A stretch of DNA of 63,990 nt, the filler included, from Collodictyon triciliatum (taxonomy: Eukaryota), in the NCBI GenBank assembly GCA_043381765.1. It is 8 parts of 8 records of this genome, joined end to end, with 100 filler letters (N's around TTAATTAATTAA, not from the genome) between each part and the next. Parts side by side here need not be neighbours in the genome. Positions count along the whole stretch, not along the records: positions 16,548 to 24,718 come from JBHJMP010003556.1; 7 more parts are not named here. The stretch is one strand, 5' to 3'. Shown one piece after another: positions 22,093-24,578 of the stretch. A program made the translations under genes and the position numbers. A model generated the notes under the pieces. It saw nothing but the letters and a program-made list of their open reading frames with translations, was not told the DNA's origin and did not search any database. Every line of letters starts with the position of its first letter. The stretch's first letter is position 1.

Positions 22093-24578
22093 ATGAGCAC
22101 CAAGCATGAAAAAGTATTACGAGGGCGTTGGAGGCTCACAAAAAAAATTGGCCAGGGTGCTTTCGGTTTGTTTTTACTATATTACACCTTTTTAAAAACA
22201 AACAAAGAAATAAAGGGATCTAAAGTGCGATAGCTTATATTGTATTCCATAAACATAATTTTTTTTATCTTGATAGGTTGAGTTAAGAAGATAACCAATT
22301 TATATATTACTACACACGAACACAATCCCTTAAATTCTACTTGCACCTATCTATTTTCCAAAATATGTTTATGAAAAAAAAAGGGAACCTTTAAAAGATA
22401 TTCGAAAATATTTGCGCCTCGCATCATCTTCCAACTGTTCTGCGGATAGTTCCTCATGGAGTACATCTTTCACCATAATGCTGAATTCCTTATGCGGCAT
22501 TTGAATAGGGGAAACACATCTTGGCGAGGATCTTCAAACAAAACAATTAGTTGCCATAAAACTAGAAAGCAGCACTGGTCAGAAGCAGGTATTGCGCCTG
22601 GAAGTCTCTATCCTCAAAAAGATGCAAGGTATATTATCATCATAGCCTTATTTATATTATATGATTCCATACCAATTTTTATTTCACTCCTTTAATTATT
22701 TGTTTTTTTTTTTTGTATACTACCATTTTTTTTTGTAGTTGCAGTTCTCTTTTACAATACAATACACATAGATACCTGCTTATTAATACCTTGGTTCGTG
22801 TAAAAACTAAACCCATGTCGTTAAATCTTGGGATTCTATTTTGTATGCACCAATATTAGACTGTCCTTATGTATGCCGATTCTACAACTGTGGTCGTACT
22901 CACGAGCACAATTATCTGGTGATGGAGCTTCTTGGAGATAACATCTCTGAGTTGCGTAGGCGTCAAATCACAAACCGGTTCAGCATTTCCACGTCTGTTA
23001 AGCTTGGGGTTCAAATGATTGAGGCAATAGAGTCGATTCATTCACATGGATATCTGCATCGTGATATCAAACCTGTGAGGATATGAATCCCATCTTTTCT
23101 TGATATCTTTTCATCACTCATATTTTCTTTTATTCTTTTAGTTTATGTAAACATTAAAGATAATTTTAAATTGGAACAAATACGTCATGCCTCATCATTT
23201 AAATATGGGTTCATGGATTCATATCCTGTCATTGTTGTATTTTAAATTTTACTATGACTCGATCAAAAGACATGTTACCACATTGTTACCAACTAAGCTC
23301 TCTTTATTTTTTTATTTTTTTTTAACAACCCAAATATTAATCCGTACAAACTGTAGTCAAACTTTGCGATGGGTATAGGAGAGAATAAAAATAGATGCTT
23401 CATGCTTGATTTTGGTCTATCTCGTCGTTTTCTTTTACCAGATGGAAATATTCGTCCAATATCCTTTTCTTCCACTATTCGATATGCATATAGATATAGA
23501 ATTTAGCAACATTTTATACTTACGAACAAATGGGAATGCCTTCATTTGTATGAAACAGTTCTTTGGACTTTAACATTTTACCCTCGCGAGGTCGCTGGAT
23601 TCAGAGGAACATCTAGATATGCATCGTTGAACTCTCACAACTCCCAGGTAATGATGCTTTTAATGTTCATAATTCATTTGTTCGAAAAAAAACCTGTAAA
23701 ATTTTCTTGCCCATATATCCGCCTACCCATATTCTTGCTCATTTTTATTTCTTTTTCATGCAAATAATATAGGAGTTGAGTCGAAGAGATGACTTGTGGT
23801 CTTTCTTTTACATGATGGTTGAGTTTATTGTCGGCGGACTTCCTTGGAGACGATTGAAGGATAAGGTAGTATTCTAACCACTCAATTCATGTGATTTGTA
23901 AATAAAAGCGGAAAAAAATGCAACCTTGTTCATTACAGGGAGAGGGCTTATGTTATCCATGAAGTCCCACCTGCAAACATATATGAACACATTAAAATAT
24001 TAAGTAGATATGCTGGATGCTTATTTTTAGAATAGTTTACGATTACATCATTTACCTTTTTAATTTCCAATCGCCATTTCCTGAACAATTCTCTAATATG
24101 ATCTACTTAATCATTCCCACATTTTCCTAGAATCAAATAGGAGAGATGAAGCGCCACTGTCACACCCCTGAACTCGTCCGAGGGTTACCTTCTGAATTTC
24201 TCATCATGTTTAACTACTTGCAAGGTCTCAAATATGAGGATATTCCCGACTATAAGATGCTGGGACAACTTTTGATCGACATGAACTCGCAAGATGGCAA
24301 CTTGAACTCCCCTTACGACTGGGAACTTCCTCAACAATATCAAGTTGGTGACAGCGGTGAAGCAAGAAGTCCCGTCAATTTGAGTGCAGATCAGAAAAGG
24401 TAACGAACAAACATTATTTTTGGGACCTCTTGAGATAAAGTGTACGGTTTTAAAATAAGAATATCATATATTGCAATTTTCTCACATACATGCTCACCAC
24501 AGCCAGAAGTCTGAAGGTGATATTGCCATTTTAGAGGACTTTGAAGAGGTAGATGTGGAAGTCGAAGGGGACTCAAAG
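22093..24578 (+). CDS. TTBK: Tau-tubulin kinase (CK1 superfamily), 3' truncated
   Basis: Spliced: KKIGQGAFG|...VAIKLES...[15 protein letters not shown]|...FYNCGR...NYLVMELLG...[15 protein letters not shown]...[10 protein letters not shown]...[22 protein letters not shown]..|[22 protein letters not shown]...PYDWE. These are TTBK-type signatures. Confidence 0.9.
23459..23581 (+). other. U12-type AT-AC intron
   Basis: 5' end ATATCCTTTT, branch-like GACTTTAAC at 23566-23574, 3' end TTTTAC. Removal restores [13 protein letters not shown]; retention gives an in-frame TAG. Confidence 0.9.

Follow-up and report, generated by a model that had tools for sequence, protein, structure and literature searches.

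The minor spliceosome has been lost in many microbial eukaryotes, and one well-formed intron of the AT-AC U12 type is a strong, if indirect, sign that an organism retains it. A TTBK-like kinase gene of Collodictyon triciliatum raises the question of whether it is interrupted by such an intron. The gene lies in the window, by which we mean the whole stretch of DNA that was analysed, 63,990 bases long. A preliminary description had put forward 23459-23581 as an AT-AC U12-type intron. The coordinates and letters that it gave for this segment are all present in the sequence, and the placement is supported by the splice-site consensus, the alignment with TTBK1, the scoring of exon joins and the 19-residue spacing of two kinase motifs. 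On this evidence, 23459-23581 is very probably a real, well-formed U12-type AT-AC intron, with putative excision at its two ends.

Structure of the TTBK-like gene

The TTBK-like gene is a multi-exon gene on the + strand of the third piece of the window (16548-24718). Our eight-exon model (Table 1) encodes 338 aa and contains zero stops. It is 74% identical over 332 aa, with 2 gaps, to P0002 and 72% identical to P0001, both of which are Trinity transcriptome proteins from EukProt. The six GT-AG introns are 103-343 nt long and have a GC content of 0.26-0.32, with 0.29 for the AT-AC intron and 0.44 for the exons. A search with exon 3 gave 206 candidates. Of these, 157 are homologues at E ≤ 0.001, and the sources name them as tau-tubulin kinases. 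The best matches of exons 4 and 5 are TTBK1/2 chains (E about 1e-4), ahead of CK1 chains. Judged by these matches, the host gene is a TTBK-like kinase of the CK1 group, and the predicted AT-AC intron is located within the region of the activation segment.

Table 1. Coordinates of the TTBK-like gene, of its putative AT-AC intron and of the linkers and gaps in the window. X1 and X2 are RNA runs.
Feature	Position	Strand	Basis and remarks
Exon 1	22093..22165	+	ATG at 22093; sequence, stop-free model, 14-letter X1 loose end
Intron 1, GT-AG, phase 1	22166..22508	+	model; from RNA only a 14-letter X1 loose end ahead of 22508 that fits the tail of exon 1
Exon 2	22509..22628	+	RNA contigs, model
Intron 2, GT-AG, 231 nt	22629..22859	+	joint present in a single contig each of X1 and X2
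Exon 3, kinase catalytic loop, ends HRDIKP	22860..23074	+	Pfam Pkinase E=4.2e-10; 157 homologues
Intron 3, GT-AG, 282 nt	23075..23356	+	joint in X1 and X2 contigs
Exon 4, SNFAMG...GNIRP	23357..23458	+	aligned to TTBK1 chain 7qhw 138-172
Putative AT-AC U12-type intron, 123 nt, phase 0, GC 0.29	23459..23581	+	motifs, join scoring, gene model, spacing
5′ splice site ATATCCTTTT	23459..23468	+	sequence; [G/A]TATCCTT consensus
Second branch-point candidate TTCTTTGGAC	23559-23568	+	A at 23567, 14 nt from the intron end
Candidate branch-point sequence CTTTAAC	23568..23574	+	As at 23572/23573, 9/8 nt from the last intron base
3′ terminal AC	23580..23581	+	sequence; intron ends TTTTAC
Exon 5, ends ...NSHNSQ	23582..23647	+	aligned to TTBK1 chain 7qhw 173-193
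Intron 5, GT-AG, 125 nt	23648..23772	+	X1 contig joint, shorter side 29 letters
Exon 6	23773..23865	+	RNA contigs, model
Intron 6, GT-AG, 265 nt	23866..24130	+	X1 contig joint
Exon 7	24131..24399	+	RNA contigs, model
Intron 7, GT-AG, 103 nt	24400..24502	+	X1 contig joint
Exon 8	24503..24578	+	X1 contig with 222-letter loose end behind 24578; GT at 24579
Linkers	8175-8274, 16448-16547, 24719-24818, 32979-33078, 41236-41335, 49495-49594, 57754-57853		identical
Plain N gaps	18558-19141, 28627-29076

The X1 contig that covers exon 8 diverges for 222 letters after 24578, and the genomic sequence continues with GT at 24579, indicating that the gene extends past the piece. A further intron would begin at 24579 and have its acceptor outside the piece. 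Read unspliced past 24578, the gene runs into a stop at 24594-24596, closely followed by an (ACAT)n microsatellite with a weak Rfam call as mir-297. Among the homologues, the annotation of P0006 (Acytostelium subglobosum) goes from ...HRDVKPS straight to KDLGRRDDLW, without a stretch equivalent to exons 4 and 5, and that of P0007 (Heterostelium album) goes from ...DFGL directly into the C-terminal region. Both gaps affect the same region and may come from faulty gene models.

The window itself consists of eight pieces of about 8.2 kb each, joined by 100-base linkers made of 44 N, TTAATTAATTAA and 44 N. It is a composite and not one contiguous locus, so that neighbourhood arguments across the linkers are invalid. 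GC content differs strongly between 25200-28500 and the rest of the window, with 0.57 at 26001-28000 against 0.29-0.36 in many of the other 2-kb bins, and drops from 0.54 to 0.36 in piece 2, so that GC-rich and AT-rich genes sit on one contig. At 34385-39316 (+ strand), a gene of several exons shows a weak match to NACHT along with multiple TPR_12/TPR_10 repeats and resembles nephrocystin-3. Taken together, the nephrocystin-3-like gene, a gene of the tubulin-tyrosine-ligase family and the TTBK-like gene suggest an organism with cilia or flagella.

Transcription and splicing of the gene

Five RNA runs were found, and the contigs of four of them (X1, X2, X3 and X5) were compared with the gene. 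The RNA label of X1 is a guess only, yet spliced sequence is present in it. Specifically, X1 contigs contain five GT-AG joints, two of which are also seen in X2, establishing directly that the gene is transcribed and that the introns neighbouring 23459-23581 are spliced. The X1 contigs end at 23431 and restart at 23617, so that 62 nt of the predicted mRNA, all within 23432-23616, are without coverage, and neither the AT-AC joint 23458|23582 nor the GT-AG joint 23453|23559 is found among the contigs of the four runs. Short transcript-derived fragments spanning the junction were sought with exon 4 plus its read-through as the query, in the 'near' length class, and none was found.

A contig of X3, a lake metatranscriptome, is unspliced over 23351-23540. 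Because it retains 6 nt from the end of the preceding GT-AG intron, it represents DNA or pre-mRNA and decides nothing. X5 has unspliced pieces elsewhere in the gene, and the unspliced stretches of X3 and X5 lie at 22173-22714 and 23351-23540. X5 comes from the same study but from an organism coded differently, and in its intron-containing stretches 2 letters out of 155 and 5 out of 158 deviate from the gene, suggesting that X5 represents a very close relative and that the X3 and X5 runs contain some DNA or pre-mRNA.

Sequence features of the putative intron

The motifs at both ends of the segment are directly observed. Exon 4 terminates with ATT CGT CCA (I R P) at 23458, in the frame ...LPDGNIRP, and the segment that follows opens with ATATCCTTTT, which matches the U12-type 5′ consensus over all ten bases. 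Exon 5 starts with CCT CGC GAG GTC GCT GGA (P R E V A G) at 23582 and is immediately preceded by GGACTTTAACATTTTAC. Reading through past 23458 leads to a stop 16 codons inside the segment (ORF 23357..23506), in accordance with the stop claimed in the preliminary description.

Near the 3′ end, the candidate branch-point sequence CTTTAAC agrees with the consensus TTCCTTRAC at 6 of its 9 positions, and wobble would accommodate a seventh. The branch A had been described as unusually near the 3′ end, and this is borne out: it lies at 8-9 nt, compared with an optimum of 11-13 nt for U12-type introns (PMC3584512). The gene's six GT-AG introns all lack a YTTRAY motif within 15 nt of the 3′ end. TTAAC-like motifs are also present farther upstream inside these introns, so that proximity to the 3′ end is what counts and the motif alone is weak evidence. 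There is no long polypyrimidine run at the 3′ end of the segment; several GT-AG introns of the same gene likewise lack one, and on this showing the polypyrimidine-tract criterion is non-discriminating within the gene. The segment would be a phase 0 intron, phase 0 being the rarest phase among minor introns (about 22%; PMC10639083). Overall, branch-point support for the putative AT-AC intron is weaker than its 5′ splice-site support.

Homology and join scoring place the exon boundaries at 23458 and 23582

Exon 4 aligns over its whole length with TTBK1 chain 7qhw, and the match of exon 5 abuts that of exon 4 at residues 172|173, with no gain or loss. The two exons are thus contiguous on TTBK1, just as would be expected from the earlier statement that the TTBK frame breaks exactly after ...GNIRP. 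For join scoring, we used a profile of 55 homologues of at least 300 aa, taken from the first 75 of the 157 matches, and scored all in-frame, stop-free joins with a donor end at 23400-23529 and an acceptor up to 23639 (n = 4431). The top score, 92.3 bits, belongs to the AT-AC pair 23458|23582, and its sole tie is an AA-TA pair that encodes the identical protein.

Furthermore, the distance from DFG to GF[RK]GT is 19 residues in 58 of the 61 homologues that have both motifs (among the 120 of 157 matches listed). The AT-AC model has the same 19-residue spacing between DFG and GFRGT and contains an IRPP motif that is also found in 8 of the listed homologues. P0002 and P0001 are uninterrupted across the join, reading RPPRE/RPPRD and then QAGFRGT. 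In particular, P0002 reads ...GNIRPPREQAGFRGT... across the joined exons without a break. The boundaries required by homology are thereby established directly.

Occurrence of the 5′ motif elsewhere in the window

RTATCCTT occurs at 12 sites in the 63,990-base window, compared with 4.7 expected, and none of 100 shuffles reaches 12. Nine of the 12 matches, counted on both strands, are ATATCCTT, corresponding to about 7e-5 per position and strand, which makes a chance match exactly on a homology-defined exon end very unlikely. Only one of the 12 sites, 23459, has both an open exon that ends at the motif and, close to a 3′ AC, a branch motif.

The sites at 9720, 13171 and 60671 were considered as U12 introns and rejected, as their sequence context places them inside GT-AG introns. 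The site at 13171-13178 (+ strand) is in the tubulin-tyrosine-ligase-family gene, where an ordinary donor, ATG|GTAAG, precedes ATATCCTT by 22 nt. The next exon, which carries an HLTN motif, starts behind ...CCTAAAG. Since ATATCCTT here lies within a GT-AG intron, it is probably there by chance. A looser U12 scan of the window gave 26 combinations, and homology supports none besides 23459.

Alternative explanations for the segment

Could the major spliceosome instead remove a GT-AG intron at 23454-23558? This pair, which the preliminary description had missed, is in frame, stop-free and canonical in its dinucleotides, and it is the best GT-AG pair enumerated. However, its join 23453|23559 scores 73.5 bits against 92.3 bits for the AT-AC join (the best GC-AG join has 75.6 bits), and the RP of RP[PA]R is lost to an 8-residue insert, in keeping with the earlier claim that no GT-AG pair restores the motif. 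The spacing from DFG to GFRGT becomes 25 residues, a value found in 0 of 61 homologues (among 120 listed), and the donor, GTCCAATAT, is unlike the other donors of the gene, GTAAT, GTAGT, GTAAC, GTGAG, GTATA and GTTTG. With its joint also absent from the RNA contigs, X1 being uncovered over 23432-23616, we regard this explanation as very improbable. A more radical proposal, that 23459-23581 is never spliced out and reflects a pseudogene, an assembly artefact or DNA-level elimination, can point to the unspliced X3 contig over 23351-23540. It is at odds with eight open exons that give a model 74% identical to a relative's transcript, and with the identity between the exons and spliced RNA contigs. 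Moreover, a chance insertion would not put ATATCCTTTT...AC exactly at the exon ends, and the elimination reading is rejected because TA-bounded excision (23460/23579) removes 119 nt and breaks the frame. The proposal as a whole is extremely unlikely.

The remaining alternative accepts the AT-AC boundaries and assigns them to a U2-type AT-AC intron, cut by the major spliceosome in an organism without a minor spliceosome. Rare U2-type AT-AC introns exist, the 63,990-base window contains no minor snRNA, and the match to the branch-point consensus is incomplete and lies near the 3′ end, all of which would suit this interpretation. Against it stands the 5′ splice site: ATATCCTTTT fits the class-defining U12-type consensus over all ten bases, and U2-type AT-AC introns are not known to carry TATCCTT. 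A U2-type intron is accordingly a quite improbable assignment, and a U12-type AT-AC intron is the reading that we adopt.

Implications for the minor spliceosome and for gene annotation

From what is established about the minor spliceosome, U11 and then U6atac would bind the 5′ end of the intron at ATATCCTTTT, and U12 would bind the branch-point sequence near the 3′ end, likely CTTTAAC (8-9 nt) or alternatively TTCTTTGGAC (14 nt). Excision at 23458|23459 and 23581|23582 would then join ...GNIRP to exon 5 (PREVAG...). We infer both that excision takes place at these boundaries and that U11, U12, U4atac and U6atac are present in the organism. A search of the 63,990-base window with Rfam gave no match of any kind at gathering score; five chance-level matches were returned at E ≤ 10, none of them a spliceosomal snRNA. 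As the window has no snRNA gene, the minor spliceosome is something that we infer rather than observe here.

A gene finder restricted to GT/GC-AG boundaries would break or truncate the TTBK-like kinase gene. A preprint on Physarum describes such an effect in the earlier annotation of that genome (bioRxiv 10.1101/2020.10.12.336362).

Relationships of the TTBK-like protein

The best named matches of exon 3 are dictyostelid proteins, at 62-69%. A quick maximum-likelihood tree was calculated from the model and 34 of the 120 listed homologues, which we selected ourselves and which comprise the named proteins and some unnamed ones. In this tree, the Collodictyon model groups only with P0001 and P0002 (SH-aLRT 96). 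This group falls outside a 19-row clade that contains Balamuthia and the dictyostelids (SH-aLRT 99), and also outside the animal, Anaeramoeba and oomycete groups. A placement in Amoebozoa, as the dictyostelid matches of exon 3 might have indicated, is therefore unsupported by the quick tree. Deep relationships are beyond the resolution of a tree from one kinase, and we make no lineage claim. A homologue search with a neighbouring 244-aa ORF found none. A metagenome scan with P0002 gave 67 pattern-matching stretches, of which three loci encode a relative; at 27-32% identity, these relatives are useless for comparing intron positions.

Comparison with known minor introns

U2-type AT-AC introns have the same AT-AC termini as the putative intron but, unlike it, are not known to show the TATCCTT consensus at the 5′ end. 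The AT-AC U12-type introns of animals and plants (Minor Intron Database, PMC6717393) resemble the putative intron in their ATATCCTT 5′ site, their terminal AC and their branch motif near the 3′ end. They differ from it in that CTTTAAC is a partial match here and lies 8-9 nt from the end, compared with an optimum of 11-13 nt (PMC3584512).

In eight supplementary files of PMC6717393 on human and mouse minor introns, DONSON, MAPK14 and CSNK1G1 are present and TTBK1/2 are absent, so that the host gene is not a known mammalian minor-intron gene as far as these files go. A full-text search for TTBK2 in connection with minor introns led to a single paper, in which Ttbk2 figures solely through exon skipping in Zrsr2-mutant mice. 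CSNK1G1 of human and mouse offers a parallel, with a minor intron in a CK1-group kinase and a 5′ splice site of AAG|GTATCCTTG (PMC6717393 supplementary file 1); that intron is of the GT-AG subtype, in contrast to AT-AC in the TTBK-like gene.

More than 3000 eukaryotic genomes have been surveyed for minor introns (PMC10639083), and that survey reports them for the amoebozoans Physarum, Protostelium, Pelomyxa and Acanthamoeba. The closest protist comparison is with the ATATCYTT-AC introns of Physarum polycephalum (Larue, Elias & Roy, bioRxiv 10.1101/2020.10.12.336362), a preprint that quotes the U12-type 5′ consensus as [G/A]TATCCTT. According to the same text, the Physarum introns, also in a protist host, share the 5′ site [G/A]TATC[C/T]TTT, and the terminal A of their short branch motif precedes the 3′ splice site by 9-12 bp, a range that the 8-9 nt of the TTBK intron adjoins. 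The Physarum motif is TTTGA, described there as co-evolved with its U12 snRNA, whereas the TTBK intron has TTTAAC. Physarum is credited in that text with more than 20,000 such introns, compared with a full U12 context at one of the 12 RTATCCTT sites in the 63,990-base window. It is conceivable, though unlikely, that we are dealing with a sparsely sampled lineage without recorded minor splicing, whose U12 system has a shortened 8-9 nt spacing and a TTTAAC-type motif. If true, such a system would be a shift comparable to that of Physarum, yet different from it. The probable AT-AC U12-type intron in the TTBK-like gene is of a known kind, an ordinary example and not surprising in itself.
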